In this document: in pieces, positions 1 to 64,000 of the stretch
Layout of the letters: every line of letters starts with the position of its first letter
Numbering within the stretch: the first letter of the stretch is position 1
Notes under the pieces: model-generated
What the model was told of the DNA's origin: nothing
The model's input: the letters and a program-made list of their open reading frames with translations, nothing else
Database searches by the model: none
DNA from: a virus
Reading direction: 5' to 3' (one strand)
Length of the DNA: 64,000 nucleotides
IMG/VR virus record: IMGVR_UViG_3300049927_000163
Location: 9,513-73,512 of that record
Program-made: the position numbers and the translations under genes

Positions 1-669
1 ACCTGCTACAGGAAGTGCTATATTTGCAAATCTCTGGTAAGCGTTTGGACGAGGTGGAATTTGTCCTGCATTTTGAGATATAGTAGATGCATTATTTCCA
101 GCATTCGAAAGGTTTTGGTTAGCTCCTGATTGAGCATTGTATAAGTCACCAATAGTGTTATATTGCATTTGCTGTTGACGAGCGCGTTCTTCTTGAACTA
201 GAGGAGCAAATTGAGCATTCAGGCCAAGATGTAGATTTGCACCTGCGGCAGCTAAGGCTTGGTTCAAGGCTGAAGAGGTTTTGCTTCCACGGCCAAATTG
301 ATTCATGACATCAGGAAGTGTCTGCTGTTGGAAGTTAGCACGAGCATATTCAGCTACTGGATCAAAAACCTGTTTAGCTTGGTCATAGCCTTGCGTTCCT
401 TGATAGGCCTTACCACCTACACCAAATTCACTTCGGAGTTGCTGGGATAGAGGATCTGTACCAGCTGCAAAGTCTTGAGTTCTCTGAAGTGCTTCTTTAC
501 GAAATGGAGCACCTTTCAAGTATTCTTTGGCGGCTTGTTTTTTTACCTTAAGATCTGCTTCTCTAGATGTATCTTTGTCGCCTTTAAGCTTTTTTATTAA
601 TTTTCCTGCTGCATTATAACCAAGACCAAATGTTGCAACCTTTCCTACTTTTTTACCTGCTTTTCCCAT
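1..669 (-). CDS. Virion ejection/internal protein (runs off window)
   Basis: Own translation MGKAGKKVGKVATFGLG...FQQQTLPDVMNQFG...SSALNQAL. Shares SSALNQAL and position (after GNAT gene) with 37808..38578. Gln/Ala/Gly-rich. Confidence 0.7.
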   Translation of the reverse strand, partial: MGKAGKKVGKVATFGLGYNAAGKLIKKLKGDKDTSREADLKVKKQAAKEYLKGAPFRKEALQRTQDFAAGTDPLSQQLRSEFGVGGKAYQGTQGYDQAKQVFDPVAEYARANFQQQTLPDVMNQFGRGSKTSSALNQALAAAGANLHLGLNAQFAPLVQEERARQQQMQYNTIGDLYNAQSGANQNLSNAGNNASTISQNAGQIPPRPNAYQRFANIALPVAG

Positions 670-1118
670 TATTCCTCCTTGTATTCCATGGCCACATCTT
701 TACAGCGCTTGAAGCCGAGACGTTCATAGAATTTAGCGTTTGTAGTCATCCAGATAGTCGTTTTGACTTTCATTCTGTTAGCAATTAATTTCACAAATTC
801 CACAGCTTTCTTCATCGCTTCACCTTTTTTCCAGTAAATCTTATCGATAGAGAAGGTGTTTACAAACATGCTGTGATCAAGTGGGTTTAAATCCATCCAG
901 AGGTAGCCAACTATTTCCTTATCTGGGTTAATCAAGGCGTATATTAAGCTAAAAGGATTCTCTTCGTCTACGCATTCTTGTGCATATTTGTAAAAGTCAT
1001 CTACAGAGAATGCGCGGCCTTTTACTTGCTCAACAAGATGCCTGGGAATAAGTTCTGGGAGGAGCAGCTTCATGAAGGTGAGGTCTTCAAGTGTGTAGAC
1101 TTTCTCTTCAGTCATCAT
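669..1118 (-). CDS. GNAT-fold virion morphogenesis protein
   Basis: FVNTFSIDKIYWKKG...KFYERLGFK acetyltransferase-like motifs. Homolog of 38484..39017. Typical podovirus position before ejection genes. Confidence 0.65.
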   Translation of the reverse strand: MMTEEKVYTLEDLTFMKLLLPELIPRHLVEQVKGRAFSVDDFYKYAQECVDEENPFSLIYALINPDKEIVGYLWMDLNPLDHSMFVNTFSIDKIYWKKGEAMKKAVEFVKLIANRMKVKTTIWMTTNAKFYERLGFKRCKDVAMEYKEE

Positions 1119-1555
1119 AGCTGAGTACCTACAATACGTATGTTGAAACCTGCTGTTATGCCAGCTCTATTATGTTTTATTTGGAAGTTTGTAGTAGTCG
1201 ACGTGATAGTTAAGATATTGCCTGCCCAAGCACCAGTTCCAGCTTGGCTAGAGAGTAGGTTTACAACGCCTACAGCAGCATCAGATGACTTGGTAAGTGC
1301 CCATACAGCTGTAGGTAGCGTTGACTCGATTCCTGAGACTAGAACCATAAAAGCACCGAATCTAGCAACATTAGGAATATCTGCAGCGGTATCTGATATT
1401 GGGATAGAGAATGCTGTAAAGTCTCTAGCATTTATATTAATGGCTATATCTTCATAAAGCCTTGTCAGATACTGTACAAAGGTCATTATCTCTTGAGGCG
1501 ATGGAACAATCGTGTCAGGAGATAAATAAGGTAGCTGAACATTGTTAAAACTCAT
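1115..1555 (-). CDS. Virion/tail accessory protein
   Basis: N-terminus (LTRLYEDIAININ) resembles 39014..39562 (IDKMTDTYQQVAQNVN). Syntenic. Confidence 0.55.
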   Translation of the reverse strand: MSFNNVQLPYLSPDTIVPSPQEIMTFVQYLTRLYEDIAININARDFTAFSIPISDTAADIPNVARFGAFMVLVSGIESTLPTAVWALTKSSDAAVGVVNLLSSQAGTGAWAGNILTITSTTTNFQIKHNRAGITAGFNIRIVGTQL

Positions 1556-3876
1556 AAAAACATACCTGGAGTTAATCTACCCGCAGGTTCTGCCCATAAT
1601 ACCATACCAGCAATTACAAATTGTCCTCGCTGATTTATAAATGATGATGAGTCTATTTGTAAGCGTAAAAATTGCCCTGTAAGATTGACATACATCCTTT
1701 TCCAAGCATAATCCTGATAGATGCTACCAGTTGCTGGCGAATCAAGAGTCATAGACTGAATGAGAGCAGGATTATTACTGTTATTTATATACCAACTTAA
1801 TTGTAATACAATCTGTTCACCATTATCATTGTCAACAGTATAGGAGTTCCTGCCTACTTGATAATAAAAGTCTACATAACCAAATGTTGCTTTTTGACCC
1901 TGTTGGATAAAAGGGTTCCATCGCTTACTAACCATAGTGCTATCAATTAACTGACCACTAGATGGATCTGTAGTATCTATGACTTTATCCATTTCAGCTT
2001 TGGCATCGTTAAGGTAATAGACGATACCATTTGTATCTCCACCTAGCATCCAGGGAACCAGATCTTGGTCTATAAGAGAGTTCCAAGTGAAAGTACATGC
2101 TTCCCATGTTGTAAATGCAGCTGCCAAATCATTCCATGTTACATCTGTATATGTCTTTGCAGATCCTATACAAGAGAGGGAAATATCATAGGTAGACCAG
2201 GTCTCTTCTAGCCAGTTAAAGACTATGACTTTGTCACAATTTGTATTTGTAGTAGCTCTTTCATCTGAAGGATAGATCATCCAGCTTTGCTGGGTTTGAT
2301 CGAACCTCTTTCCTTGACAAATTGCAAAACTATTTTCATCAATATCTGTATAGAGATCTATGGCATCTGGAACGTCATAACGATCTTTATTAACTCCATC
2401 ACATTTACATAGGCCTTTTGCACCCATTGACGTAGTGTATGTGTCATATTCAATAGATCCATATGGAGCATTTGTAGATTTAGTAGAGTTAATCTTGAAA
2501 AATCTGAATGGTGAAGAGACATTTCCTGTAGATCTAAATAAGAAACATGAATCTTCGAATTCAATGACTAAGGCATCTCTTAAGTATGAAGCTGACATAA
2601 TCCAGTCACCAGTACTTGCAGAGATAAATGAACCGTTACCTGGGACATCTGCTGCAAAATTAGTAGGATTATGAGGGGCACTAGAGCGTATCATCTGACC
2701 ATCAGGAAAGGAATTTCCTACAGTTGTAGGCCTAATGAGAAGGAGTGATTCATTATAGACTTTCACATCTAGAGTAGTCTTGATATCATTTACAAACGCT
2801 TCCACATGAGCAAGAGTGATTCCAAGAGGAGGACGAGCTAGATTTGTGCCATCATACGTTGTAACTTGATCTACATTGTTTGTCATATAAAGATGCGAAG
2901 TATCAGATTCTGAAGCTCGCCAGTTGACATAGTTAAATAGGTTTTTGAAGTCACCAGTGAAATAATCACCTTGAAGGCTAGAAGATACTGTAAAAGTAGC
3001 TACTTCAGGAGCCACTAGATTTATGGTTATCACTCCTGTTGCATAGTTTACAGAAGCTGAAGCGATATTTGTTCCATCAGGTAAAGGATTGCCACTATGA
3101 GTAAATCCGCCTGTACCATCATCTTCAATGGTAAAAGTGTTAAGAAGTGTTTCTTTCTTAACTATTACAGAATATGGAGCTAAATTTGTAAATCCAGTAG
3201 TGAGTGTAAATGGTCCAGTAAATGGAGGAGGTGGCGAAGTGAGAGTTGTAGTGTAATTTATCTGAGATATTGAGCTAACTGGATCAAAAAGCTGAGTTAT
3301 GGTGTTGAATACTGCAAATCTTCTAGTGTCTGCTATCACTAGTCTATGAGCGTTTGTCTGTTCATTGATGAATTCAGTTATCATCATGATAGGACGTTTT
3401 TGTGGAGTAGTTAGAGCATTTGGAGTATATGTATATTGTGCTACTATAGGATTTAAAGCTGGTATTGTAGCTGTTGTATTAAGATTCCAAACACCAGTAG
3501 AATAATCAATTGCTGAACCAGCTGCGGCAAGAGATCCAGATAAATTTCCTGTTGCTGTTGCAGTAGCAGTTTTTAAACCAGTCGATGTCAAAGCAGTAAA
3601 AGTAATAGTTCCTTCTATAGGAAAATTTGAAAGAATACCACTGTAGGTTGATCCACCATTTCCAGTAGCTACTATCTCATTGTCCTGATATCTAATAGAT
3701 CCAGTAAGGCCATAGACAGAAATACCGTTACGCTTTTGTACTTGACCACGGAACACATAGGAATTTACTAATGGATTCCATGCATCATCCGGTTGCATCC
3801 AAGGCTGGGTGTATTGAAACTGTCCAGTCTGGAAGTTAGTGATAGCAAAGGGCTGATATCCTGAAGGAGCGCTCAT
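1552..3876 (-). CDS. Tail nozzle / DNA-stabilisation protein (P22 gp10 / T7 gp12-like)
   Basis: 774 aa beta-rich protein. Homologous to 39562..41571 (QPW..P.DA, WNP...QG.....GYVDFY, WKR.Y). Podovirus position. Confidence 0.7.
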   Translation of the reverse strand: MSAPSGYQPFAITNFQTGQFQYTQPWMQPDDAWNPLVNSYVFRGQVQKRNGISVYGLTGSIRYQDNEIVATGNGGSTYSGILSNFPIEGTITFTALTSTGLKTATATATGNLSGSLAAAGSAIDYSTGVWNLNTTATIPALNPIVAQYTYTPNALTTPQKRPIMMITEFINEQTNAHRLVIADTRRFAVFNTITQLFDPVSSISQINYTTTLTSPPPPFTGPFTLTTGFTNLAPYSVIVKKETLLNTFTIEDDGTGGFTHSGNPLPDGTNIASASVNYATGVITINLVAPEVATFTVSSSLQGDYFTGDFKNLFNYVNWRASESDTSHLYMTNNVDQVTTYDGTNLARPPLGITLAHVEAFVNDIKTTLDVKVYNESLLLIRPTTVGNSFPDGQMIRSSAPHNPTNFAADVPGNGSFISASTGDWIMSASYLRDALVIEFEDSCFLFRSTGNVSSPFRFFKINSTKSTNAPYGSIEYDTYTTSMGAKGLCKCDGVNKDRYDVPDAIDLYTDIDENSFAICQGKRFDQTQQSWMIYPSDERATTNTNCDKVIVFNWLEETWSTYDISLSCIGSAKTYTDVTWNDLAAAFTTWEACTFTWNSLIDQDLVPWMLGGDTNGIVYYLNDAKAEMDKVIDTTDPSSGQLIDSTMVSKRWNPFIQQGQKATFGYVDFYYQVGRNSYTVDNDNGEQIVLQLSWYINNSNNPALIQSMTLDSPATGSIYQDYAWKRMYVNLTGQFLRLQIDSSSFINQRGQFVIAGMVLWAEPAGRLTPGMFL

Positions 3877-4559
3877 TAATTACCTATTGCAAAATAGTAA
3901 AATCCACCTGTCCATAAACCAGAATCACTTCTTGGAGTAAACCTATTTGCACTCACATCGGGTGTGCCAACATCACCTATATATATTGAATGTGAATTTG
4001 TACTATTTCGTATACCAGTTATTTGTACATTTATTGTTTGAGTTGCAAAAGGAGTTGGATAAGTAAAGTTTTTTCCGTCAACATCACCACTTGTAGGAAT
4101 TACTCTTCCCCATTTATATTCAAGACCATTTGGAAAAATAATATTGCCATAGTCAGTTGTAACACCATTACCATTACCCATAACATCTGGTCCAACATTA
4201 AATATACTTGCTTGTACTACACCGTTGCCTCCAGGAGTTCCAGCTTTCCAAATTGGTAGGCCACCACTTACACTAGCACTTGTAATCTGAGTTTCTGCAG
4301 ATGAACTTGTGTAAAATAGTTCTGTTCGTCCAGCAACTGTCTTAATATAAACAGAACCTTGGCCAGCAGAAAGAACTGGTGTTGCAATGACTTGAGGGAA
4401 CCTTACCTGTTTATGATATCCACTTGTAGGCACTGAAGGACTTAAAGGAACATGATCCACTCCGAATATAATATTCATTTGCTGTGAATTAACAAGAATT
4501 TCAGGGATATCATTTGATATCATATGTGGTAGATCTGGAACATTTGGATTATAAGTCAT
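3876..4559 (-). CDS. Small tail-fibre-like protein with gp53-like C-terminal domain
   Basis: IIFPNGLEYKWG...FTYPTPFATQTINVQIT motif typical of phage fibre C-termini. N-terminus parallels 41571..42227. Confidence 0.55.
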   Translation of the reverse strand: MTYNPNVPDLPHMISNDIPEILVNSQQMNIIFGVDHVPLSPSVPTSGYHKQVRFPQVIATPVLSAGQGSVYIKTVAGRTELFYTSSSAETQITSASVSGGLPIWKAGTPGGNGVVQASIFNVGPDVMGNGNGVTTDYGNIIFPNGLEYKWGRVIPTSGDVDGKNFTYPTPFATQTINVQITGIRNSTNSHSIYIGDVGTPDVSANRFTPRSDSGLWTGGFYYFAIGN

Positions 4560-4561
4560 AT

Positions 4562-5479
4562 TTAAAACCTTGGGATTGCCCTGGAACTATCCAGTTGTTG
4601 TACATATCTACCAAGAGCTACTCTTTCAAATTCTTGGTATAGGTCATAGTTTTCTGCACGGGAATTACTGTCACCTCTATCAGCAAATATCTGTAGGGCC
4701 GCACCATATGCTATTAATTGGCCCCATTCCTGTAAGGATGGCGTCTCCTCAGTACCTGTAAGTTCAGATGGATTTATGAACCCTTGAAGACGAATCTTAT
4801 AAACTGCATCTGGTATTGGACGTAGGGTAAAGTTAAATTCATCTCTATAGGGATCAGTGTAAAAGAGGATACCTCTAGGAATATTTGCTAGCATCGAACA
4901 GTATTTGATTACTATTGCTGCATTCAAAGCAGGAGGATTAGGAAATGAAATATTATATATTCCAGTTCCATAGTTTATAGCTCCAATCACAGATACAAAA
5001 TTATTTGTATTTGGATCTTGGTCACCAAATCCACCCTGTCCATCATCAACAAAAGTCTGAGTGTCACCATCAGTGATATAAACAGTTTCTTGGGCTATAG
5101 GTTGAGCCTGAGTTACTCCTGAGAAACCTACTGTAGTTCCATCGCCTGAGGCTACTGGATCTTGGTTATACTGCTGAGGCCAATGCTTCCAGAAGATGTC
5201 TGGATCTTGCTCATATGTGACTGGAAACCCATCAGCCCAAGCACATGGCTGATTAGTGAGAAATCTGCCTTGAAACTTGTACACATCCTGAAAAGGGATA
5301 GTGTAAAAGTCATAAAACTTGAGCTGGATCTGTTCCTTAAGCTCAAAGGGCATGATATACTTGTAATAATTATTAATATAATCCGTGATCTGAAGATCGG
5401 TTAATTGATCTTGAGAGGGGGTTCCGGTAATGTTACGTACCTTAAGGATTATGTTAGTAAGGGTCCAGCCACTAGACAT
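4562..5479 (-). CDS. Head-tail adaptor (tail tubular protein A-like)
   Basis: Strongly similar to 42243..43115 (KVR..TG..S..QL.D..I..YINNYY; TP.LQEWG..IAYGAA). Position between capsid block and nozzle. Confidence 0.7.
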   Translation of the reverse strand: MSSGWTLTNIILKVRNITGTPSQDQLTDLQITDYINNYYKYIMPFELKEQIQLKFYDFYTIPFQDVYKFQGRFLTNQPCAWADGFPVTYEQDPDIFWKHWPQQYNQDPVASGDGTTVGFSGVTQAQPIAQETVYITDGDTQTFVDDGQGGFGDQDPNTNNFVSVIGAINYGTGIYNISFPNPPALNAAIVIKYCSMLANIPRGILFYTDPYRDEFNFTLRPIPDAVYKIRLQGFINPSELTGTEETPSLQEWGQLIAYGAALQIFADRGDSNSRAENYDLYQEFERVALGRYVQQLDSSRAIPRF

Positions 5480-5922
5480 TATCTACCTCTTATTGACTTA
5501 CACTGATAGAGCGATTTGTATGAAGTGGGCATGCTCTTTGTCATACCAGATCTTTCATCAAACTTATCTTCATAGCCAAAAGTATGACATGAATTTGGGT
5601 CATGAGGATTAGTACCTTCAAGGTGATTGATCACTTCAATAGGAAGATCATATTCCTTGTCATGCATTAGCTTGTAAGACTTTAAGGGATGCGTCTTTGA
5701 AGCATAGAAAAAGTCAAGAGGACGACCTGGATCTCTGTTATTTACAAACTTAATACGCTCATACTGAGGTCTATTGCTTGCAACTACGGCCACAACTTCT
5801 TTGTTAAAATGAATCTGATCTTCAGGTTCATCCATGACAGCTGTTGCTGTTGGAGCAAAAGATTGCATTGTAACAACAGGATCTTTTGTTTCTTTAGGAA
5901 TTATTCTTTTTGGTCTTGCCAT
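5479..5922 (-). CDS. Conserved virion-cluster protein
   Basis: Homolog of 43124..43462 (Y.LMH...Y.LP..V..H.E ... QC). Confidence 0.55.
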   Translation of the reverse strand: MARPKRIIPKETKDPVVTMQSFAPTATAVMDEPEDQIHFNKEVVAVVASNRPQYERIKFVNNRDPGRPLDFFYASKTHPLKSYKLMHDKEYDLPIEVINHLEGTNPHDPNSCHTFGYEDKFDERSGMTKSMPTSYKSLYQCKSIRGR

Positions 5923-5934
5923 TTGTATACTCCA

Positions 5935-6294
5935 TTAAAGTATGTTTTCGAAAGGATCATAAGGCTCATGCCCTGCAATTATCAGAGCCTGCCCACCACT
6001 AATATATGTACTGAATACCGTGCTATTTATCGATACCGTGATGTTGTCCACGTCAGGGACGCTTAGGATCATTCCAATGAGTAAGTTCATTTGGGACATG
6101 CCTTTGATTTGATGGAAACTTAGAGAAGTAATTCCAACATCAGCGGAAGTTGTAAACCCATGATTTATTATTGTTACCTTGGCCTCTGCGGCTTTGGTGA
6201 TAAAAGAGATTGTCTTAACCGTATTAGGGAACTCAAAAGGAGATGGTGGTACTACCGATGGAGGATATGAGACCTTTTGGTTTTTGACAGTCAT
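5935..6294 (-). CDS. E1-FCCH-like beta-domain virion protein
   Basis: ISFITKAAEAKVT..HGF...I.GM.QMN...INSTVFSTYISGG; paralog of the central domain of 6345..7055. Confidence 0.55.
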   Translation of the reverse strand: MTVKNQKVSYPPSVVPPSPFEFPNTVKTISFITKAAEAKVTIINHGFTTSADVGITSLSFHQIKGMSQMNLLIGMILSVPDVDNITVSINSTVFSTYISGGQALIIAGHEPYDPFENIL

Positions 6295-6307
6295 TTGTAG
6301 CCTGTTG

Positions 6308-6333
6308 CAAAGTAGGGGATTTTAACCCCCCAC
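6308..6333 (-). terminator. Intrinsic terminator after capsid/decoration genes
   Basis: Minus strand GTGGGGGGTTAAAATCCCCTAC followed by TTT. Same position as the 43474-43500 hairpin in unit B. Confidence 0.5.
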
Positions 6334-6344
6334 AATGACGTTAA

Positions 6345-7055
6345 TTAACCGTTTGCTGAAGTATCTAGCAATGCATAGTAGTTCCATACATCTGCAGTAG
6401 TAGTCATCAAATCTGTGCCCAAAGTAAGGCCAATAACACCATGGTTGTATAATGGTGTCATTTGGACTTGTGAGCCAAATTGTGTTGTTACAGGCGCACC
6501 AGTAATCACGTTGGCAATACCACCTGATACATACGTACTAAAAGCAGTAGAGTTGATATTGACAGTAAATGATGTTGTGCTAGTTACAGTTGTAATCTGA
6601 CCACGTAGGGTATTGATCTGCTGCATACCAGCTACTTGACTAAATGTAACCCAAGTTACACCAATATCAGCTGAAGTAAAGCTATGAGTAGCAGTGATGC
6701 TAGCTTCAGCAGCTTTAGAGATTGCAGTGATGACAAGGTTAGTACTATGGTTCACATTGTAAGGAGCCTGATTAGGAATCCAAAGATCCTGATCAGCTGT
6801 TATAAATGGTGTAAATGCATTGGCTGTATGCCATGCAAATTCAATTGCTGGCTGACTAGCAGTATAGTCTGTAGAAAGACCAGTACCATTTGCATATGTA
6901 GGAAACCATTCTGCTTTAACGATTTCATCGTTAACAGGGTTTATTGCATTGGTCTGGTTAACCATATAGAAGTAACTAGGGATAAATCCCAAAGTTAGAT
7001 TCTGAGCTGCACCACCTAAAACAGTGGTAAAAGTTCCAGTTTTGATAATAGACAT
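6345..7055 (-). CDS. Putative capsid decoration protein with FCCH-like domain
   Basis: Immediately after the major capsid gene. Thr-rich. Homolog of 43507..44103 (GF....T; F/Y.S.YVSGG). Confidence 0.6.
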   Translation of the reverse strand: MSIIKTGTFTTVLGGAAQNLTLGFIPSYFYMVNQTNAINPVNDEIVKAEWFPTYANGTGLSTDYTASQPAIEFAWHTANAFTPFITADQDLWIPNQAPYNVNHSTNLVITAISKAAEASITATHSFTSADIGVTWVTFSQVAGMQQINTLRGQITTVTSTTSFTVNINSTAFSTYVSGGIANVITGAPVTTQFGSQVQMTPLYNHGVIGLTLGTDLMTTTADVWNYYALLDTSANG

Positions 7056-7057
7056 AG

Positions 7058-8017
7058 TTATGCTCCCAATCTTAAGGTGCTTGTGACTCTGGCGATCCAG
7101 TTGTCATTGATGATTCGTCCACCCCAAGGAATCTTGAAGCCAACTGATGATCTTTGATCAAGTGCATCAGTAGTACCTGCAGATCCTAGAGGCTTAACAA
7201 TAAGTTGAGCTTGCATAGCACCTAGTTTCACTACACCATAAGCCTCACGGCCTACAACAAAGCTAGAGTAGACTGGTATTGCTGCACCATTGTTGAAACC
7301 GTTGGTCGATGTCATCCATCGAATATTTCGGGTTTGGCCCCATTCTGGAAGCAGACTTGTGCTTTGATTCGCATAGTTTGCAACTGAATTGAAGCTTGAT
7401 ACTGCCTCTAGATCCATCTCCATATCTGTAGACATAAAGCCCCAGAATGATTGACGGCCAGGAGCTGTTCCAAAACGGTTTTCACCTTGTACGAGCGGAG
7501 TTAGAAACTCAGCGTTACCTTGGCGAAGTGCTCTTTGAACAAGCTGTAGATCACGGTCTGTAATCTCTGTAGGAGTGTTACCGTTGATACCATTAGAGCA
7601 CGCGATTGTTGATGCTGTTGAAACCATCATGTCGCGGATTAAAGTATCTAGGGTAAGACCTAGTTGTAATGAAAGAACTTTGGTAAGTTCATTCAAAACG
7701 CGGTCCTGCACTGTGTACTGAACTACATCAGATACGATCATATAGGCGCCATACCATGCGATCTTAGCGCTAAAGTCGATAACTGACTGTGATTGTCCAG
7801 GAGGAGATACCGCTTCTGTTAGAGGCGTTGTAGCCGCTGACTGTGTGCCATATCGTCTAAAGATCAATGAGTCACCTGAGTTCATTGGGATAACGCGCTG
7901 TTGTGCGCACTTATCATAAATGAGGGCAGGCGTAGCAAGTTTTAGCAGGAGTCTATCGTAATAGACACGTACTTCTGGTGGTACTGTATTTGTGGTTACA
8001 GCATTTGGTGATGACAT
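7058..8017 (-). CDS. Major capsid protein (N4-gp56 family)
   Basis: YYDRLLL..A.P.LI..K.AQ.R....GD.LIFRRY and GSAG..D.L.QR motifs. Clear homolog of 44116..45057. Confidence 0.9.
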   Translation of the reverse strand: MSSPNAVTTNTVPPEVRVYYDRLLLKLATPALIYDKCAQQRVIPMNSGDSLIFRRYGTQSAATTPLTEAVSPPGQSQSVIDFSAKIAWYGAYMIVSDVVQYTVQDRVLNELTKVLSLQLGLTLDTLIRDMMVSTASTIACSNGINGNTPTEITDRDLQLVQRALRQGNAEFLTPLVQGENRFGTAPGRQSFWGFMSTDMEMDLEAVSSFNSVANYANQSTSLLPEWGQTRNIRWMTSTNGFNNGAAIPVYSSFVVGREAYGVVKLGAMQAQLIVKPLGSAGTTDALDQRSSVGFKIPWGGRIINDNWIARVTSTLRLGA

Positions 8018-8031
8018 AAGTTACTCTTTAC

Positions 8032-8827: not shown

Positions 8828-8840
8828 TTTTTAGGAGAGG

Positions 8841-9203: not shown

Positions 9204-9206
9204 AGT

Positions 9207-9419: not shown

Positions 9420-9420
9420 A

Positions 9421-43500: not shown

Positions 43501-43506
43501 ATTAAG

Positions 43507-46144: not shown

Positions 46145-46154
46145 TTTTTACTCC

Positions 46155-55275: not shown

Positions 55276-55287
55276 AAAATCCTCCAT

Positions 55288-55370
55288 TGCCAGATCAAGG
55301 AATCAAACCTTGAGAAAGGGATGTTCCATCACTCGGAGGCAATGGTATTCTCCCGTCGTCAGACTCTGGC
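55288..55370 (-). ncRNA. Degenerate tRNA-like element
   Basis: Acceptor-like GCCAGA/TCTGGC-A stacked on T-arm-like TCAAGG-TTTGATT-CCTTGA. Centre non-canonical. Confidence 0.4.
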
Positions 55371-55616
55371 TTATAATGCCTATATTTGTAGCTAACAGGT
55401 CATAGGCAACCTAAGAAGATTATCGTTAAACCAATGTTTCTTCTCATAAAATTGGGGCCGTTAAGGGCGAGGCCATACACCATACTGCGCGGAGTACATC
55501 TATTTATTTACAAACACATTAATTATTTTCCGACTTTTTTCTTCCTCTGATGATACAATGCCCGAGCGGCACTTTTTATCTTGGGATTGGTTCGTTTACT
55601 TGATTTCTTGCCTCTG

Positions 55617-55793
55617 TTACTCATTTGGCACCTCAGGTAATGGCATCCAGTGAGTTATTTCTTCATGAATATACATATGACTATCTATCCATGCATCATC
55701 TCTGAAATGTGCTACTCTTATATCTACGCCATCATAGATTAATACATCAACCCATACATTTGGATATTCTTGAGAGCATTTAATCCATTTCAT
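55617..55793 (-). CDS. DUF551-like protein B3 (58 aa)
   Basis: Own translation MKWIKCSQEYPNVWVDVLIYDG...ITHWMPLPEVPNE. Confidence 0.75.
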   Translation of the reverse strand: MKWIKCSQEYPNVWVDVLIYDGVDIRVAHFRDDAWIDSHMYIHEEITHWMPLPEVPNE

Positions 55794-56052
55794 TAGAATT
55801 ATCCTTTACTTCACGATATTTCCTACCCCATTTTGTTTCATATTCTTCTAAAGGAGACTCTGGCAAAGGCATCCAAGCAACAATAGCACCAGTACAACCA
55901 GTGCAACTGCAACAACATTCCTCGCATATAACCCAATGCTCATTGTATTCAGGCTCTTCAGGCATAAAACAAAGATAGGTTCTTTGGGTGTCGTGAGCTA
56001 GGACAGCTTCGTTTGGTTTAGGCAATCTTTCCGAGCATTTAATCCATTTCAT
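55780..56052 (-). CDS. DUF551-like protein B2
   Basis: MKWIKCSERLP...AWMPLPESP. Confidence 0.8.
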   Translation of the reverse strand: MKWIKCSERLPKPNEAVLAHDTQRTYLCFMPEEPEYNEHWVICEECCCSCTGCTGAIVAWMPLPESPLEEYETKWGRKYREVKDNSNEMD

Positions 56053-56263
56053 CTTTAAATCCCCATATTGGCAATGGTAAAGGATACCAATGAGTAACTA
56101 GAAGCGCAGGACTCTTTTCACTACTTCCGCCTTGTAATTGGAAATACTGTCCATCATGATAGTAAAATGCAAGAAAACCATAATCCCCACGATTGGTATT
56201 CATCACCCAACATAGGCATTCTTCTTTGTTAGGAAGTCGCTCTTTTACAGTAATCCATTTCAT
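56039..56263 (-). CDS. DUF551-like protein B1
   Basis: Two amino-acid differences from 12643..12867. Confidence 0.75.
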   Translation of the reverse strand: MKWITVKERLPNKEECLCWVMNTNRGDYGFLAFYYHDGQYFQLQGGSSEKSPALLVTHWYPLPLPIWGFKDEMD

Positions 56264-56910
56264 AAAATAACTCTAACAGGCTCATGTACAGGATTATAAA
56301 CATCATCCACATGAGAGGCATTGACAAATGTGGTTAGAGTAGTGTAAAAACACTTTCCGCCGTGTTCATGGATATGTCCAAAGACATGCAGTTTAAGTTT
56401 AGGGAATCTATCGCCTATCACCATATTTCTAAGTGATATACTGCCAACATGATTTCCATATGAGGTGCAGTCCATTATTGCATGGGGAGGAGAATGAGTC
56501 ACCAAGATATCTATGTCTTCAGGTATCAGTTCCCACTTCTCTGCAAGTTCTTCATCCGTGTCGAAAGTGAACGCCTTACACTTTGGATTCATTCCCTCAA
56601 ATGTCTTGGTCCATGGTGAACCCCAGATCTTTAGGCCTTCGAAGTTAGCTAACGAATCACAAAGATATTGGATGTCGTATGAATCTGGCATGCCCGGGAC
56701 ATCACAAATCTGTACTCTTGTATCGTGATTGCCTGCAATTATAATAATCTTACGATATTTCAGTCTCTTTGACCAATGATGGAAATCTCTTAACGCTCTC
56801 ATTGATCCATCCTCGACCAAATCACCTGCGAGGATTAAGAGATCTCCACCCTCCATTTCAGGATAGTAACCATGCAGGTCAGATATGCAGTCAATAATCA
56901 TATTTACCAA
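56260..56910 (-). CDS. Calcineurin-like metallophosphoesterase
   Basis: SDLHG, AGD, AGNHD, VTHSPP, FGHIHE motifs. Confidence 0.9.
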   Translation of the reverse strand: MVNMIIDCISDLHGYYPEMEGGDLLILAGDLVEDGSMRALRDFHHWSKRLKYRKIIIIAGNHDTRVQICDVPGMPDSYDIQYLCDSLANFEGLKIWGSPWTKTFEGMNPKCKAFTFDTDEELAEKWELIPEDIDILVTHSPPHAIMDCTSYGNHVGSISLRNMVIGDRFPKLKLHVFGHIHEHGGKCFYTTLTTFVNASHVDDVYNPVHEPVRVIL

Positions 56911-57197
56911 AACATAATTTGTATAAAGAATATATTAAAATAAAAACCAGTGTACATAAAAGTATTGGTATGCATATTATAACGGTAACAACTATTATAA
57001 ACAAACAAAAAAGCACAGGAGCGCACATAAAAGCAAACGGTATTAAAGCTATTATTAATAGAATCTCCCAAAAGCTCATCGCTTCCGACTACTCCAATCT
57101 CTCTTAAACCAACGAAATGCATTCTTTTCACTAACGCCCTCTTCAGGTTGGTACCAGAATTTGAATAGCTTCCGTAGTGATTTTACTCTTGAGCCTC

Positions 57198-57578
57198 TCA
57201 TTCCTGCACCTTACCGAAGCATGAAAGTCTAGGCGAATAGCTTTTCTTTTCAGCTTCAACCATGGCGTCTTCACCCTTGAATGTATCGATGTCAAGGAAT
57301 AATTCCATGTAGCTAACGCGGTAGTCGATATCTTGAATCTTATCGTTTACTTCTTTGAGCGTCATAGAGTGAGCATTCACATCGTCTAGGTTAGCCGTCA
57401 TAGAGATAATCACTTTAGACAGATTATCTAGATCATTCTTGATGATCGTGAGCTCTTTCTTTCTCTGCTCATTGGACTTGTTGAGCTTCTTCATGTCTTT
57501 CGTTACGCCAGCATCTAGCATTCCAAGAGCAAGGATTGGTCCAACAATAGCTAATAGTCTTAGATATTTCATAAACAC
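57198..57578 (-). CDS. Signal-anchor + coiled-coil protein
   Basis: Hydrophobic N-terminus followed by heptad repeats. Confidence 0.5.
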   Translation of the reverse strand: MFMKYLRLLAIVGPILALGMLDAGVTKDMKKLNKSNEQRKKELTIIKNDLDNLSKVIISMTANLDDVNAHSMTLKEVNDKIQDIDYRVSYMELFLDIDTFKGEDAMVEAEKKSYSPRLSCFGKVQE

Positions 57579-57585
57579 CTCAAAG

Positions 57586-58155
57586 TTAAATGATTAAACT
57601 CTCTCTTAAATCAGGGCCATTAAAATCTACACACACAAATTCTTTTAGCCTGGAACTGATACGCTCACCAAACAGGTCTTTTAACTCATCTTCATGCAAA
57701 TTTGTAGTCATAATCGTCACAAGCTTATGTGCTACTCGAGTATCGATGATGTCGTAATAGTCTCTCTCTGCTTTGTACCCATCACGCATCAAACCAAAGT
57801 CGTCGATGAAAAGGAAAGGGATGCGAATGAATGTGTCTAACCAAGGCTTAACAGTTTTGAAATTATTTGCATACTCTGAAAGTGTTGCATCTAGTGATAG
57901 TGCTCTAAAGTATCTAATATCAGCAGGATATATCTTCTTTCGTTCGAATAGGTCACGAATGATTGCAAACATAAAGTAAGTTTTACCACGACCAGCCGCT
58001 CCAGTTAGCAAAGCACTACGCCTAGTGTTTATAATCCTGTAGGCTTTGTCTTTGTAACTTCCTCGCTCGTCGTCTTTCAAGATTAACTTAGCTATGCTGG
58101 CATTCTGATACCGTTCAGGCACATCATTTCGTATACAAAAATCTTTCCAACTCAT
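57586..58155 (-). CDS. DnaC/IstB-like helicase loader ATPase
   Basis: GAAGRGKT Walker A, FLFIDDFG Walker B, TTNL...L....GERI.SRL. Confidence 0.9.
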   Translation of the reverse strand: MSWKDFCIRNDVPERYQNASIAKLILKDDERGSYKDKAYRIINTRRSALLTGAAGRGKTYFMFAIIRDLFERKKIYPADIRYFRALSLDATLSEYANNFKTVKPWLDTFIRIPFLFIDDFGLMRDGYKAERDYYDIIDTRVAHKLVTIMTTNLHEDELKDLFGERISSRLKEFVCVDFNGPDLRESLII

Positions 58156-58669
58156 GTATCACCATTGGGGTAGAAATCGTTTCTTTCTTGTTTTTTCAAG
58201 AGATCGTGCTTAAGTGCAGTCTTTACCCGTTTGTGTGCACTATCGCTGAAATTGGAAGGTTTTATGGGCTTTGGTGCAAGCTTTTCAAACCTTTCGGTGT
58301 CTACTTTCTGGTATTGCTTCTTCAAGGGGCATTTAGTTCCCATGTACAAACCTCTTTATTTGCGATTCTTGGGCCTGTTTTTCGTTGGACGTCTCTTTAT
58401 GCATTTTGATTGCGATCGTTTAAAATTAGGCGAATAAGAGGCCTTCTGATGGCCTTCTGTTCTAAACACGTAAACCCTCCAAAGACTTTCCAATATATTC
58501 AGCCAAAAATAAGGCTGATCTGATTCCGCAAGGATTATATCTCTCAATCCCCTGATGCCAGCCAGATTGATATTACACTCCAAGTCCATGCACTCGAAGT
58601 AATAAGCCAATGCTCTAGCCTGTGAGTCAGTCTCTGCAAGTTGATGAATCCAACGAAATCCAAACTTCA

Positions 58670-59638
58670 TTAGAACTTCTCCCACTTGAAATCGTCTTTG
58701 ACTGCGTCTCCTCTGGTTACGTTCTTACTTCCTCGCCTATGAGGTGCGATATTAGCCATCTGTTCTTTTTTCTGTAAATCATTAAATTTGATCTTGTCTT
58801 CTCTCACACGCAGAGCTACCCACTTAGTGATCCTGAAGTAATCGCTCTTGTGTTTGTTCACCTGGGATGGTGTAGCGGATTTCTTCCAGTCACTGAGATA
58901 CTCGTAGCATTCCTGTGTCACATCAGCGCCAAACTTCTCAACGAGCTTCTGGTGTTCAGTAACGGACACTGAGACATTCTCTGCCATATCAGGCCAATCA
59001 TCAAAGCGTGGGGATTCAGGTTTTGGAATAATTCGCCTTGGCTTGTCCGGAATCTTTGGATTTGATGGAATTTCAGATCGATTTGGAGCGTGAGCGTTAG
59101 CTTGCGCATTAGGTGGTTTGACATGGTCCGTTTCGTCTCTAGAAAATGGCGCAATAGAACCTTTAGGTTCTTTGTCTATTCCATTTGTTCTATTATATAT
59201 AGGAGCGATAACTGCGTTTGGGAGGTTTCCATAACTGCGTTTGGGAGCTTTAGATAACTGCGTTTGGGAGGTATCGATAGTGTTTCTTTGATTTTCTATT
59301 ATGTCGTTGAATATCTGTATGTTAATCCTAAAATATCTTCGAGGAGGTAGATCAAAAACCTGCATTTCGATGACCCCTGATTCTTTTAAAATTCTTACTA
59401 CAGATCTCTGTTCTTTCTCGCCAATTCCTAGCATATCTTCGATGTCTTCGACCTTTTGATAGAACCAACCATCGCCATAAACTGGATGTGATGCGAAAGC
59501 ATTTTGCTCATCTGCATAGCAATGCATAGAGACTAGCTGGCTTAAGAAAAGGGCTGCAGAAGGACCGAACTGTTTAAGAATGAACTTGTTAACGCCGATG
59601 AAGTTTTTGTAGTTGATTAAATGTAGCGAGTTTGACAT
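58670..59638 (-). CDS. Replication initiator (lambda O-like architecture)
   Basis: N-terminal wHTH (GWFYQK.ED.E..LGI...EQ), central low-complexity region with iterons, C-terminal KHKSDY..I.KW domain. Upstream of the DnaC-like gene. Confidence 0.75.
   Translation of the reverse strand: MSNSLHLINYKNFIGVNKFILKQFGPSAALFLSQLVSMHCYADEQNAFASHPVYGDGWFYQKVEDIEDMLGIGEKEQRSVVRILKESGVIEMQVFDLPPRRYFRINIQIFNDIIENQRNTIDTSQTQLSKAPKRSYGNLPNAVIAPIYNRTNGIDKEPKGSIAPFSRDETDHVKPPNAQANAHAPNRSEIPSNPKIPDKPRRIIPKPESPRFDDWPDMAENVSVSVTEHQKLVEKFGADVTQECYEYLSDWKKSATPSQVNKHKSDYFRITKWVALRVREDKIKFNDLQKKEQMANIAPHRRGSKNVTRGDAVKDDFKWEKF
59208..59270 (+). repeat. Three 17-bp iterons, 23-bp period (putative replication origin)
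   Basis: ATAACTGCGTTTGGGAG at 59208, 59231 and 59254 inside the initiator gene, next to an AT-rich stretch. Confidence 0.8.
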
Positions 59639-59983
59639 AATTGTAAACGTCCCATATTGGTTTAATTGTTTTTTATTGCTTAAAGTACAGTTAGCTTATT
59701 TGAGGATTCCTTGTTTAGATCGTATAGGGCCAATTGACATAAGCCTTGTTATAAATAATTCGTTTCTGGTGCCATCTATCCTTGACCAAAAGTCTGGGTA
59801 GATGGTATTTTTATTTACGTCATTGTAGTTTTTGCAAACGTCATTTAGAACTAGGGGGATGAGCATAAGAGTCTCTCTAAGGTTTTCATTGTACCTCGGT
59901 GTGGCAACGCTAGGTTTTAAATGACATTTAGGCCAGTATGGGGTTGGCTCTCCGCTGGCCTATTTTTTCCCCACAATTTGGCG

Positions 59984-60214
59984 TTATAAACACGCTGCCT
60001 TTTTCTTGGCAAGATTTCTTTCTTCTTTCAGAGCTAAAATTTCATCTCTGCTCACTTCCCCTTGGCAAAAATCTATCAATTGATCTACATGAGTCTTAAG
60101 CGGACGTAGCTTACCAATTGCTACGAGAGCGAAAGAATTTCGATGTAGCTCAAGAGAAGAAGACGCATAGGTATAAGTCAAATGATTGCTGTGAGAATAA
60201 TCTTTAAGTTTCAT
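59984..60214 (-). CDS. Cro-like HTH regulator
   Basis: MKLKDY....G...P......I..F..GEVS pattern. Divergent from the recombination operon, as in unit A. Confidence 0.6.
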   Translation of the reverse strand: MKLKDYSHSNHLTYTYASSSLELHRNSFALVAIGKLRPLKTHVDQLIDFCQGEVSRDEILALKEERNLAKKKAACL

Positions 60215-60326
60215 ATATCACCTTGTTTTTTATGCAGCATAACATTACATAAATGAAAAATATATATCAAGTAATTTTTACGGTAAACAGAAAACATTGG
60301 TACGAAATATAAATCACATAAAAAGC

Positions 60327-60356
60327 TTGCGTAAATAATACAGCCTTTGCTATAAT
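60327..60356 (+). promoter_or_regulatory. Sigma70/sigma66-type promoter for the recombination operon
   Basis: TTGCGT-N18-TATAAT with an extended -10 TG. Confidence 0.5.
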
Positions 60357-60770
60357 GATGTCATACGAAGTAAGTCTCCCGTAAAGGTTTCGCACCTAGA
60401 GGTTGTAGCTGCTAAGTATGTATTGAGATGTAACCATAATGTAACCGTCTTTGCCAAGACAAAAAGGAGAGCCAAATGAATAATCCATGGGAAGAAGAAT
60501 TAGACCCAATAGAGGATATGTTTCAAGAGAAGATGTACTTCGCTAGAGAGACACTTAAAGATATCGTTTCTCAGCTATACGGTCAAAAAGAGTTAAATAT
60601 AGACGAGTTTGAGAGTGATCTTGAAGAGTTGTGCCACTCAATGAAAGTTACACTGCCTTCTAACAAGATTCAGATTGAGCGCTCTAAGTTGCCGGAGCCT
60701 GACTATCTCGTGAACTGGAAAGGATTCAATGAAAATTATCTAAAAAACATAGCCATCTAGGAGAGCCACT

Positions 60771-61604
60771 ATGTCAAACGAAGTAATGAAAACGGAAAGC
60801 AATCTCGTTGGAGCAATCAGCGAGCTTGAGAATCAGAAGAAGATGTGTGAGATGCTATTAAAGACTCCGCACTATGCAAAGTTGGGTGCTGAGGGAATTT
60901 ATGCAGTACTTGCCAAGGCCAAGTCATTAGACATCGATCCATTCGATGCCTTAAATGGCGCCTTGTATTTTGTTAAGGGCCGTGTTGGTATGTCAACTGA
61001 GGCAATGGCGGCTCGTGTTCGTTCAGCGGGTCATAGCATTACTAAAGATCCTAAGAGTACAAAGACTAACTGCATCTTGAATGGTAAGCGTGCAGATAAT
61101 GGTGACACTTGGATAACAGAGTTTAGTATTGATGATGCCAAGAAAGCTGGAATTTACAGCGATGGTGGACCATGGTATAAGTATCCTGATGTGATGTGCT
61201 ATAACCGTGCTATGTCTAAGATGTTTCGTCAAATGACACCTGATTTAAGCAAAGGTGCTGGTTACGATATGGATGAACTCAGAGAGATTGCTAGTAAGTC
61301 TAGCTATGAAGTTGAAGTTGTTCCTCAGCCAGTAGAATTGGTTGGAGAACAAGAAGTCTGTGATCTTGAGAATATCTTGAGTGAGTGTGACCCCGCTTAT
61401 GTAGTTCGAGTATGGACGGCTCTTAAGAAAAGTCCAGAAAAGATTGAAAGTCTTTCTCACTTGACTAAAGATCTGTATGAGCGGATCAAAGTAGGCGCGA
61501 TGAAAAATCGTGAAGAATTTCGTGCCTCTTCTCAGGATTGTGAAGAGATTGAAACGGAGTTTGATGAACTCGAAGAATCAGAATCCGAAACTATGGCGGT
61601 ATAA
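60771..61604 (+). CDS. recT: RecT/Redbeta-like annealing protein
   Basis: AKSL.IDPF.AL...LYFVKG, AKKAG......W.KYPDVM...RA.....R.. pattern. Paired with a YqaJ exonuclease. Confidence 0.7.
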   Translation: MSNEVMKTESNLVGAISELENQKKMCEMLLKTPHYAKLGAEGIYAVLAKAKSLDIDPFDALNGALYFVKGRVGMSTEAMAARVRSAGHSITKDPKSTKTNCILNGKRADNGDTWITEFSIDDAKKAGIYSDGGPWYKYPDVMCYNRAMSKMFRQMTPDLSKGAGYDMDELREIASKSSYEVEVVPQPVELVGEQEVCDLENILSECDPAYVVRVWTALKKSPEKIESLSHLTKDLYERIKVGAMKNREEFRASSQDCEEIETEFDELEESESETMAV

Positions 61605-61779
61605 GTGAAGTCTTCAGATTTTACACTTGCCATAGTGAAAGAGAAATGGGGCGAGTATTTAGAGATGTGCGGGGAAGATTCCGCACATCATCTTAACTCG
61701 ATCTTGGCAGGCGAGTTATCAAAAGCCATGACAAAAATAGAGTATCTTAATAAAAGATTAGAACGAATGGAGAGAAAAA

Positions 61780-62655
61780 ATGAGAGCACACACAATTCTT
61801 GAGTTAGAGCAAGGTTCCGCAGAATGGCATAAAGTTAGAAGTAGAAGTATTGGTGCTAGCGATGCGCCTGTAATTATGCATAAAAGCCCATGGTTGACGC
61901 CATATAAGTTATGGGAGCAGAAGTTAGGCTTGCGTAAACAAAATGAAATTAACGCAGCTATGGCGCGAGGTAATGCCATGGAACAAGAGGCTAGAGATTG
62001 TTTCACGTTCAAAACTAGGATTCCTGTTGCACCCAAGGTAATGAGACACCAAGAACATGAATGGATGATGGCTTCTTTAGATGGAATCGATCCCAGCTAT
62101 CAGACGCTCGTAGAAATTAAGTGTGCGAACAAAGACGATCATGCCCTGGCGAAGCAAGGAAAAGTACCCGAAAAGTACTACTACCAACTTCAACACCAAT
62201 TAGAAGTTACAGGGCTAGATCATATGTCCTATTTTTCTTATGACGGAACAGATGGAGTTATCGTCGAAGTTGGAAGAAACACCCGTGACATCAATGAAAT
62301 GCTAGGCGCTGAGAAGGTCTTCTATGATTACATGGTAGATATTTTGATGCCACCAATGACTGGTAATGATTACATTATCCAGGATAGCAAAGAATGGCGG
62401 AAATGTTCCGAAGAATTGCTGGTGGTTCAAGATGAATTGAATGCCTTAGATAGACGAGAGAAAGACCTGCGCATGAAACTGATAGAGATATCAGACGGAA
62501 ATAGCAGCATTGGTTCAGGAGTTAAGTTATTGAAAGTCATACGTAAAGGTAACATTCAGTACAATGAGGTACCTGAACTAAGGGGCGTAAATCTAGAAAA
62601 ATATCGCGCAGATCCGGTATCTTTCTGGAAAATTAGTAAAGACAAGGCATTGTAA
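61780..62655 (+). CDS. YqaJ-like viral recombinase exonuclease
   Basis: EQGS.EW...R...IGASDA, ASLDG, VEIKC, YYYQLQHQL.V. Confidence 0.9.
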   Translation: MRAHTILELEQGSAEWHKVRSRSIGASDAPVIMHKSPWLTPYKLWEQKLGLRKQNEINAAMARGNAMEQEARDCFTFKTRIPVAPKVMRHQEHEWMMASLDGIDPSYQTLVEIKCANKDDHALAKQGKVPEKYYYQLQHQLEVTGLDHMSYFSYDGTDGVIVEVGRNTRDINEMLGAEKVFYDYMVDILMPPMTGNDYIIQDSKEWRKCSEELLVVQDELNALDRREKDLRMKLIEISDGNSSIGSGVKLLKVIRKGNIQYNEVPELRGVNLEKYRADPVSFWKISKDKAL

Positions 62656-63583
62656 TGGATTCAAGAATCACAAAAATTATCCAAGAATCGATAGCTGTAA
62701 CGGCACATATGTTACTCGAAGGTATTGCAGATATGAGAAAGAAAGGATTTTCTGTAGAAGAAATTCTCGATGCTATTATTCTTAAATGTGATTCACTAAA
62801 ACGATCAAATGAAGATTTGTGCGATGAATTTAAATCGAAACATAAAACTAATGTCAGATTTTTGGAATAATGGAGGCGGGCAACCTTGAACAGGTTGCCC
62901 CCTGTCTTGGGGGAGTGTGTGTCCCAAGAAGCTACATGAAAAAATCATCATAAAATTAACGGATAAATTTAGGCAAGGAAAATGTCTAATATTATTGAAA
63001 TTAATTTAGCTAAGGCTCTCAAAACTAGAGGAGAGCATAGCTGAACAATTAAGCAAAAAAGAAAAAACCACGTAAGATTTTACCCTACATGGAATTTTGG
63101 AAAAAAAAGAGTGCTACAACTCAACTTTAGGTATAGCAATGGATGAGATTATTGACAATGAAATTTTCTGGAATAATATTGAAGAAAAGTTACCACCTCT
63201 AGGACTTTTACTTCGACTTAAAACTAATAAAGAAGATGAAGTAGAAGCAATTGGTTGCTTATATTCAGAAGAAACTATATGCTTTGACCATGAAGAAAAC
63301 GTTGAGCATCTTTGTCCAGCTTTTCGTTTCTTTAATGGAAAAATATCACATCCTAAATGGTGGGCATATGTCAGCGATTCAGCAGCTAGAAATGTTTCCT
63401 TTAACTCCAGAGGAGATAAACCAGAATGAAGTCACAGATATCAAGGTACAGCTCGTAAAACTCAGAAAAAGCCACTTTGCTGCGAAAACTGAGCTGTTGC
63501 AACTTATCGTGGAGATGCGCACTGAGATTGATTCCTTGAAAAAGATTTTCCAGAAATCTTAAGATCATTGCGCCCCTATTGGT

Positions 63584-63916
63584 TTACTTAGTTCCTTCTC
63601 CAGTGGCGAAGGCTACAATTTCTTTTACATCTTTGTAGGTTGGCTTTACTTCATTTTGATTTATTGCGCTTTTAAATAATAGATGTGAACAATATCCAGA
63701 TGAGAGAACATTGATTGTCAATGCTGTGAGATAAAGACCTGAATATGGTACATTTCCAATGAAAAAAGTCACGGCAACTTCATAGATCTGTTTTGCTAGA
63801 ATAGTACTAGCGCCAGCGCATGCAGTAGAACCTAGAAGTTTCGCTGATTTCAAGGCGATTAGTGGCAGGCTTGAGGGCATGTAGCTCTTAAGGCTTTCGA
63901 AGCATTTCATGGGCAC
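63584..63916 (-). CDS. Two-hydrophobic-segment membrane protein (allele B)
   Basis: Homolog of 26865..27269. Confidence 0.65.
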   Translation of the reverse strand: MPMKCFESLKSYMPSSLPLIALKSAKLLGSTACAGASTILAKQIYEVAVTFFIGNVPYSGLYLTALTINVLSSGYCSHLLFKSAINQNEVKPTYKDVKEIVAFATGEGTK

Positions 63917-64000
63917 CTATAGGGTTAAAATTTCATACCACACATTAATAATAACAGTATTGTTATTGGCAGCATTGCCGGAAATTTCTGTTGCAAAAGG
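63882..64000 (+). repeat. Exact direct repeat, copy 2; includes the 3' end of tail paralog 3
   Basis: Identical to 27235-27353. Confidence 0.9.

Follow-up and report, generated by a model that had tools for sequence, protein, structure and literature searches.

Two podovirus-like phage genomes in a single metagenomic contig and their probable hosts in the phylum Chlamydiota

Two related genomes in one record

The stretch of DNA analyzed here, in the following called the window, comprises 64,000 nucleotides and corresponds to bases 9513-73512 of a single contig of 73,512 bp, the virus record IMGVR_UViG_3300049927_000163, with a guanine-plus-cytosine (GC) content of 31-43%. By self-comparison, two collinear and related podovirus-like genomes can be deduced from the record, phage A of about 38.5 kb and phage B of 36,647 bp, and an early gene of A encodes a protein resembling Euo, the master developmental regulator and switch maintaining chlamydiae as replicating reticulate bodies. 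The first-pass annotation had taken the DNA for that of tailed double-stranded DNA (dsDNA) phages probably infecting environmental Chlamydiae, and this assignment is supported by the distribution of the EUO-like protein as well as by a prophage and phage remnants found in chlamydial contigs.

Phage B lies complete in the window (27159..64000), delimited by a 195-nt repeat at 27159-27353 and 63806-64000 with a period of 36,647 nt, and has a sequencing depth of 9.5-15.7x. The part of phage A within the window (1..27234, depth about 38x) is preceded in the contig by another 9,512 nt of its genome, which closes via the block shared with B at about 38.5 kb (contig 1-38503), as contig positions 1-195 match 38504-38698. 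Between A and B, the major head proteins are 45%, the portals 35% and the adaptor-like proteins 35% identical, and a 3.8-kb stretch shows 82% nucleotide identity. The DNA of the record is present in a soil metagenome run (a small share of the stretch, 0.12, is also found in a freshwater run and is not used here for any habitat claim), and contigs built independently from this source soil run were aligned to window positions 24000-31000 for comparing depths. A-specific sequence has a depth of 37.9, and its contig (record 1 of the source run) stops at window position 27264, while a unitig of 1,952 nt at 27235-29186 shows a depth of 52.7, roughly the sum of A and B. From position 29245 on, two variants are found, an exact one (B, depth 9.5-15.7) and another carrying 18-20 differences (A, depth 34-42), and a loose end at window position 27180 represents an alternative join. 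In view of the unequal depths of A and B and of the shared unitig at 52.7, A and B are therefore not one molecule, and the contig is an assembly path through a shared block of 1.95 kb.

One real molecule of 73.5 kb, either two prophages in tandem or a hetero-dimer of genomes, would fit a single contig in which both genomes follow each other head to tail at a period of 36.6 kb. Such a molecule is extremely improbable, as the two halves differ about three-fold in depth, the joint falls in the collapsed shared unitig, the alternative join is visible as the loose end, and relatives are single units of 35-38 kb. The earlier description of two podovirus-like genomes of the 37-kb class with homologous heads is confirmed by self-comparison, with the correction that, judging from depth, the two are not physically in tandem. 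Chimeric concatenated records of this kind, joining two phages of unlike abundance, inflate apparent genome size.

On the minus strand of phage B, genes for the head-to-tail adaptor (42243..43115; Pfam SU10_adaptor, E 1.3e-7), the major head protein (44116..45057; phrog_1357, E 2.5e-44), the portal (46393..48417; phrog_156, E 5e-73) and the large terminase (48653..49942; phrog_2, E 2.2e-48) were identified. Phage A encodes, likewise on the minus strand, the homologous major head protein (7058..8017) and portal (13833..15947), a large terminase (18131-19630) with a weak match to Pfam Terminase_6N and with homologues adjoining portals in related loci, and a small terminase (19620-20192; Pfam GP3_package); a homologue of the SU10-type adaptor of B is present as well. 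An HK97-type major head protein, a portal and a large terminase in B, together with their homologues in A, place both phages in the Caudoviricetes, and portal homologues carry the precomputed Pfam assignment PF16510 (P22-type portal). The match to SU10_adaptor and podoviruses as nearest named relatives are short-tail features; most tail open reading frames (ORFs) are without any match, and tail-fibre-like C-termini are named by PHROGs and Pfam in genome B. The scans with PHROGs, Pfam and NCBIfam, covering 62 ORFs of window and contig with part of the small ORFs among them, detected no family of endolysins, integrases or tape-measure, sheath or tube proteins. By their genes, A and B would be short-tailed, podovirus-like Caudoviricetes.

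The nearest named and isolated phages are podoviruses and very distant. Head proteins of the Bacillus megaterium podoviruses Pascal, Pony and Palmer (about 40 kb) are 28% identical, and portals of the Erwinia phages Pavtok, Stean and PEp14 and of Stx-converting 933W-type phages 23%. These phages resemble A and B in size class and short-tail gene set, but differ in that identities are at the detection limit, hosts belong to other phyla and no EUO-like match occurs in the phage collection. Uncultured 'Bacteriophage sp.' records reach up to 31% in the head protein, and that of B does not exceed this identity to any record of the phage collection. The architecture is ordinary for Caudoviricetes and far from every cultured phage.

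The early and recombination genes of A (21668..25698) encode, according to Pfam, an HTH_36 protein, Erf, a PD-(D/E)XK nuclease, the EUO-like protein and RusA. Those of B (53199..62655) comprise RusA, a tRNA-Asn (55033-55105, from a tRNA search), a metallophosphoesterase, an IstB/DnaC-like ATPase, a RecT-like protein and a YqaJ exonuclease (Pfam). Besides, a GNAT-like protein and two HNH endonucleases (Pfam) are encoded in A, where HNH homing-endonuclease genes at contig positions 176-631 and 5476-6159 (L049, upstream of the window) interrupt the structural module; B is without them.

Two modules are common to both genomes. The shared block (27235..29186, minus strand), corresponding to the unitig with a depth of 52.7, encodes three paralogous proteins of 205-213 aa (27270-27911, 27911-28528 and 28534-29160; 40-50% paralogous identity) at the distal end of the structural module. 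These proteins have no family match in the PHROGs and Pfam scans, the structure model is of low confidence (mean predicted local distance difference test score, pLDDT, of 49.7), and a homologue in the chlamydial prophage described below is 33-40% identical; they appear to be putative receptor-binding fibres. The second module belongs to a plus-strand region of A (11665..13636) with an RNA ligase (Pfam RNA_ligase), a tRNA-Asn (12503-12575, from a tRNA search) and small ORFs. From about 12330 on, the tRNA-Asn/small-ORF module is 94-100% identical between A and B (repeats I1-I4), spanning 12330-13636 in A and 54987-56263 in B, where it is inverted relative to the structural genes. Near-identical modules in genomes otherwise 35-45% identical at the protein level indicate recent recombination, and A and B presumably recombine in the same host population. 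The RNA ligase lies just upstream of the module in A and the metallophosphoesterase beside it in B, and this combination may be a tRNA-repair system or a counter-measure against anticodon nucleases. In a third lineage member (L045, 15426-15499), a tRNA-Asn adjoins the portal as well.

Further recurring elements were noticed in the virion genes. A GNAT-like acetyltransferase gene is located within the tail-gene module of both phages (669-1118 and 38484-39017, 34% identical) and is kept in relatives, too, a placement unusual for such an enzyme. In addition, structural proteins at 39562-41601, 43507-44103, 6345-7055 and 5935-6294 match Pfam E1_FCCH (best E 3e-9), probably reflecting a small beta-barrel decoration or adhesion domain that recurs across virion proteins.

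The EUO-like protein of phage A

The EUO-like gene of the early module of A (24541..25002, plus strand) encodes a protein of 153 aa in which two stretches match Pfam HTH_17, corresponding to tandem excisionase-type winged helix-turn-helix (wHTH) domains. Its distribution was compared between a Chlamydiota set, sampled from the phylum of the metagenome-assembled genome (MAG) K1000_chlam_2, and genomes of control phyla. Full-length matches (residues about 15-144, in frames of 145-190 aa) were obtained in 149 of 150 scored Chlamydiota genomes, versus 0/151 Planctomycetota, 0/151 Pseudomonadota and 9/151 Bacteroidota, the latter matching only partially and at E 2.6e-4 or weaker. Among five non-chlamydial bins carrying relatives of the phages, one matched (E 0.14), and no match was found in 50,697 phage and 72,556 plasmid records (PLSDB). 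Among the genomes and records sampled, the EUO-like family is thus not taxonomically widespread. An exhaustive HMMER search of 1.84 billion representative proteins retrieved only 96 relatives; together with P0123, all 97 match the chlamydial family at E <=1e-3, and 79 of them do so better than they match the phage protein.

The chlamydial frames form a family of 3,368 proteins which are 70-88% identical and reside on contigs of up to 1.9 Mb. Passages of PMC4989314 describe Euo as the sole conserved transcription factor found in Chlamydiae and nowhere else, with more than 70% identity and two tandem TorI-like/excisionase-like wHTH domains (residues 6-62 and 78-137), and passages of two other sources state its conservation throughout members of the phylum (PMC4652624) and its presence in 99% of genomes (PMC8242063). 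From the fit to this description, the matched chlamydial frame would be Euo; a sequence search of the PDB with this frame gave nothing below E 0.14. Two adjacent Euo-type gene copies occur in some Chlamydiota genomes (L015/L016, G002:C28), and two matches were recorded for no fewer than 14 of the 150 genomes scored.

Compared with Euo, the protein of A is of the same length class, shows the family architecture of two tandem HTH_17 stretches and can be aligned end to end with the chlamydial family. It differs in being phage-borne, in adjoining RusA in an early module and in an identity of only 25-33%, outside the vertically inherited chromosomal Euo clade conserved at more than 70%. In a FastTree analysis of 123 sequences, all 30 sampled canonical Euo-type sequences fall in one clade (support 0.92), while the phage protein belongs to a separate subclade of eight members (support 0.98). 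Positioned outside the canonical clade, it is, judged by its sequence, a divergent Euo paralogue and neither Euo itself nor a recently captured euo. Two metagenome contigs of 1 kb (L060/L061), the only ones obtained in the JGI scan, carry divergent EUO-like genes 28-33% identical to that of A, each followed by a RusA gene (62 and 48% identical to RusA of A), and the synteny in these further contigs indicates that the gene is stable in the phage early module. Scanning IMG/VR with an alignment of the EUO-like subclade gave 230 pattern matches, none of which was confirmed, and look-alikes proposed by a language model are generic HTH_17 clusters only, from viruses and Bacillota.

Relatives in chlamydial contigs and public metagenomes

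A portal profile (A1) that included two Chlamydiota seed genomes and one Bacteroidota seed matches 10 of 401 sampled Chlamydiota genomes, the two seeds included, compared to 1/201 Bacteroidota (the seed itself) and 4/201 Pseudomonadota, all of the latter at <=93.5 bits. Without seeds, strong matches amount to 5/399 versus 0/400 (one-sided Fisher p = 0.03) and, when two remnants are added, to 7/399 versus 0/400 (p = 0.0075), an enrichment that is partly confounded by the Chlamydiota set consisting mostly of MAGs and the controls including isolates.

Three of the chlamydial cases are independent of binning. In contig G591:C1 (137,359 bp), 14 gene families common to the window are found in window-like order at 46.3-74.6 kb, with identities of 27-29% for the portal, 32-35% for the head protein, 37% for the terminase, 41% for YqaJ and 45% for the phosphoesterase. 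This prophage region is flanked by a statistically marginal 17-bp direct repeat (E 0.33) with copies 35,711 bp apart, and cellular genes follow on both sides. On the left, a pyrophosphate-dependent phosphofructokinase is 56-61% identical over its full length to counterparts in 5/5 Chlamydiota versus about 30% and partial in 4/5 non-chlamydial genomes; on the right, an exchanger shows 46-49% identity in 3/5 Chlamydiota versus <=39% in others. Near the ends of the prophage, a SocA/Panacea antitoxin-domain protein (L039 11030-11497) and a DUF29 protein (L037 18324-18794) are encoded.

The second case, contig G088:C1 (125 kb), holds a portal fragment of 100 residues that is 53% identical to the portal of B, a terminase-like frame and an insertion sequence element among genes for a major facilitator superfamily transporter, an ankyrin protein and a threonyl-tRNA synthetase, the last being 64-69% identical to Chlamydiota versus 40-48% to others. 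In the third, G478:C4 (223 kb), portal fragments with an internal stop are located between the genes for 2-oxoglutarate dehydrogenase and TamB. Local identity of these remnants to the portal of B is 49-53%. Hence, the search for matching prophages in Chlamydiae MAGs suggested at the outset yielded one prophage and two sets of remnants. In a quick portal tree of 26 rows, with long branches, the G591 prophage takes a position between A and the clade of B (supports 85, 94 and 97). Accordingly, at least one distant member of the lineage appears to be integrated in a chlamydial chromosome. A portal search of the plasmid collection (PLSDB) gave one weak match, to a Pseudochrobactrum plasmid, and no chlamydial plasmid.

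In public metagenomes, the portal of B has 1,763 homologues. Among 120 of them that were listed, 47 reside on contigs of 31-41 kb and one on a longer contig, and one is named as from a Chlamydiae MAG. A pattern scan over one genome per species gave 13 loci, most of them phage-sized contigs, with two in MAGs labelled Chlamydiota; the other bins are assigned to Bacteroidota, Ignavibacteriota (L005), Planctomycetota, Thermotogota, Patescibacteria, Pseudomonadota and archaea. Near-identical phage contigs (L001, L002) are found in a Cyclobacteriaceae and a Nitrososphaeraceae bin, and the same phage contig of 35,368 bp lies in a Promethearchaeota and a Thermoplasmatales bin (L008, L009), with identical match tables. 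We read this scattered bin taxonomy as misbinning of free phage genomes, which gives no host; public MAGs of many phyla, archaea included, would then be contaminated with this phage lineage. A closed free genome of 37.35 kb (G558:C19) carries its own tRNA-Asn beside the portal. The lineage to which A and B belong is large and uncultured, and its genomes measure about 35-38 kb.

Small ORFs of both phages are of interest with regard to host envelope and release. On the plus strand of B, two small membrane/coiled-coil proteins of 83 and 71 aa are encoded (33888-34136 and 34139-34354), the former having a hydrophobic N-terminal stretch that leads into a coiled coil, and both are candidate lysis or membrane proteins. 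The C-terminal motif of ORF 33888 is common to five scattered small membrane proteins of one chlamydial genome of 2.9 Mb and to one protein of another. The five copies in the former (G097; L021, L024, L025, L026) have variable heptad-like repeats and a conserved Cys-containing tail; one of them adjoins a PIN-domain toxin-antitoxin-like pair, and the related protein is encoded in G129 (L022). A Cys-rich zinc-ribbon-like protein of 79-81 aa (33649-33888 in B; contig L049 5174-5419 in A; 45% identical) is encoded ahead of the small membrane proteins, in the orientation opposite to that of the structural genes. In A, a small lipobox-bearing ORF on the minus strand (16590..16811) shows a hydrophobic segment followed by Cys and has a homologue of 41% identity in B (52663-52827, minus strand). 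These putatively spanin-like products suggest a host with two membranes, which argues against the archaeal and monoderm bins. In PHROGs, ten small ORFs, with ORF 33888 and the two lipobox ORFs among them, gave no family, and NCBIfam assigned none to the pair at 33888 and 34139.

Host assignment and its consequences

Taken together, the hosts of the lineage are most probably members of the phylum Chlamydiota, in favour of which stand the distribution of the EUO-like protein and the phage genes within chlamydial contigs. Several points weigh against this assignment. For A and B themselves, there is no direct host link by CRISPR (clustered regularly interspaced short palindromic repeats) spacer, Hi-C or isolate. 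A search with 20 kb of DNA against 190 Chlamydiota genomes, scoring two candidates per genome, gave two 32-nt matches of 91%, none in repeat arrays, so that the spacer check proposed earlier came out negative, if weakly so; 9 of the 190 genomes matched at all, with real phage homology in G001 and G151 only and a 33888-like copy in G097. The tRNA-Asn does not discriminate, being 76-84% identical to chlamydial genomes versus 74-78% to others. The Chlamydiota assignment of the genome set rests on the label of L003 and a portal-tree label, the controls for the EUO-like protein represent three phyla only, and the portal enrichment is confounded as stated above. Besides its low identity to Euo and its position outside the canonical clade, the EUO-like gene has been seen only in phage A and a few fragments. 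As to the bins, 11 of the 13 scan loci are non-chlamydial, four of these archaeal, and the closest relatives of B lie in those labelled Cyclobacteriaceae and Nitrososphaeraceae. The G591 prophage is a distant relative, judging from the portal and head protein identities, with a repeat of marginal significance; an empty-site test with 25 relatives found the left flank gene once, as a weak match, the right one in 0/25 and hence no empty site, and no integrase was recognized in prophage or window. The 33888 family, found in 3/151 Chlamydiota versus one weak match in 151 Pseudomonadota, is rare in the proposed host phylum, and its language-model look-alikes are generic viral membrane/coiled-coil clusters. 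The first-pass annotation was right about the ORF and its membrane/coiled-coil character, which is of little weight as a host hint. Likewise, its statement that a recognizable endolysin is lacking holds for the 62 ORFs scanned and, as negative evidence, says little about the host.

From these points, a different host could be proposed, with A and B infecting another two-membrane soil bacterium, only the branch of the G591 type using chlamydiae and the EUO-likeness going back to an old homology between excisionase-type regulators and Euo. The bins of relatives scattered over many phyla, a prophage portal of just 27-29% identity, the EUO-like protein outside the canonical Euo clade, generic HTH_17 clusters of viruses and Bacillota in the language-model search and the failure to find a spacer would all be compatible with such a host. 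Nevertheless, in 603 genomes of four phyla, full-length EUO-like matches occur in Chlamydiota only, they are absent from the phage and plasmid records, the portal tree places the prophage between A and B, and remnants with 49-53% local identity to the portal of B reside in chlamydial chromosomal contigs, so that we consider this explanation rather unlikely. Far less probable still is that all chlamydial links are artefacts of binning and assembly, brought about by co-binning with low-GC, low-coverage chlamydial MAGs and by chimeric prophage contigs. Archaeal as well as bacterial bins do hold identical or near-identical phage contigs, G558:C19 and G151:C102 represent free contigs of phage size, and the contig of the window is itself a chimera. 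However, the phage region of G591 lies centrally within a contig of 137 kb and is bordered to the left and right by chlamydia-like genes, which would require two independent false joins, the remnants in G088 and G478 are short and decayed (one with an internal stop) within contigs of 125 and 223 kb, and the evidence from the EUO-like protein is independent of binning.

With Chlamydiota as the most probable hosts, a course of infection can be proposed. The three-gene fibre block common to A and B would set a shared host range. In the early phase, the EUO-like protein would most likely serve as a putative DNA-binding regulator of phage and perhaps host promoters and may mimic or compete with host Euo. 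Each genome encodes its own functions for recombination and Holliday-junction resolution (Erf or RecT-like protein, exonuclease and RusA), and B the helicase-loader-like ATPase in addition. Release would probably proceed via the small membrane proteins and lipoproteins, without a classical endolysin, and some members may integrate by a route not recognized here. In a further-reaching picture, which is speculative and rather doubtful at present, a global family of tailed phages preys on Chlamydiae, and some of these phages would use their own diverged Euo to keep the host in a developmental stage suiting phage replication or to drive it out of one. As a bolder corollary, it is suggested by the sequences that chromosomal Euo may descend from an excisionase-type phage regulator, because a diverse cloud of EUO-like proteins surrounds one tight chromosomal clade.

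Chlamydiamicrovirus (Chp1/Chp2-type Microviridae) comprises small single-stranded DNA (ssDNA) icosahedral phages. A and B share with them the probable host phylum, but differ in having dsDNA genomes of 36-38 kb with packaging machinery, HK97-type head, portal and terminase, and have no gene family in common with them as far as tested. In passages of PMC5010888, Chlamydiamicrovirus represents the phages known for chlamydiae, in agreement with the annotation's premise that the established chlamydial phages are small ssDNA Microviridae. Phage-derived chlamydial genes have been described as well, such as a putative terminase in a genomic island of Protochlamydia naegleriophila (in the same passages of PMC5010888) and, in passages of PMC7846284, a 'phage group' on plasmids of Parachlamydia and Criblamydia. 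These earlier hints at tailed phages are isolated genes, in contrast to the whole genomes found here. A literature search, not covering subscription journals and supplementary files, found no described tailed phage of Chlamydiae.

If the host assignment is right, no tailed phages of Chlamydiota would have been described before A and B. Very few genetic tools exist for chlamydiae, which live as obligate intracellular bacteria, and reports on their CRISPR systems mention unmatched spacers and, for Protochlamydia naegleriophila, type I-E arrays. A widespread lineage of tailed phages would alter views of mortality, gene flow and defence in these bacteria, and would raise the question of how a tailed virion reaches a bacterium inside a eukaryotic vacuole, for instance by access to reticulate bodies once the host cell has lysed, or whether it attacks the extracellular elementary body instead. 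The lineage could supply recombinases, packaging signals and possibly an integration system for chlamydial genetics, and, with a Euo paralogue carried by a phage, viral control of the chlamydial developmental cycle would become directly testable.

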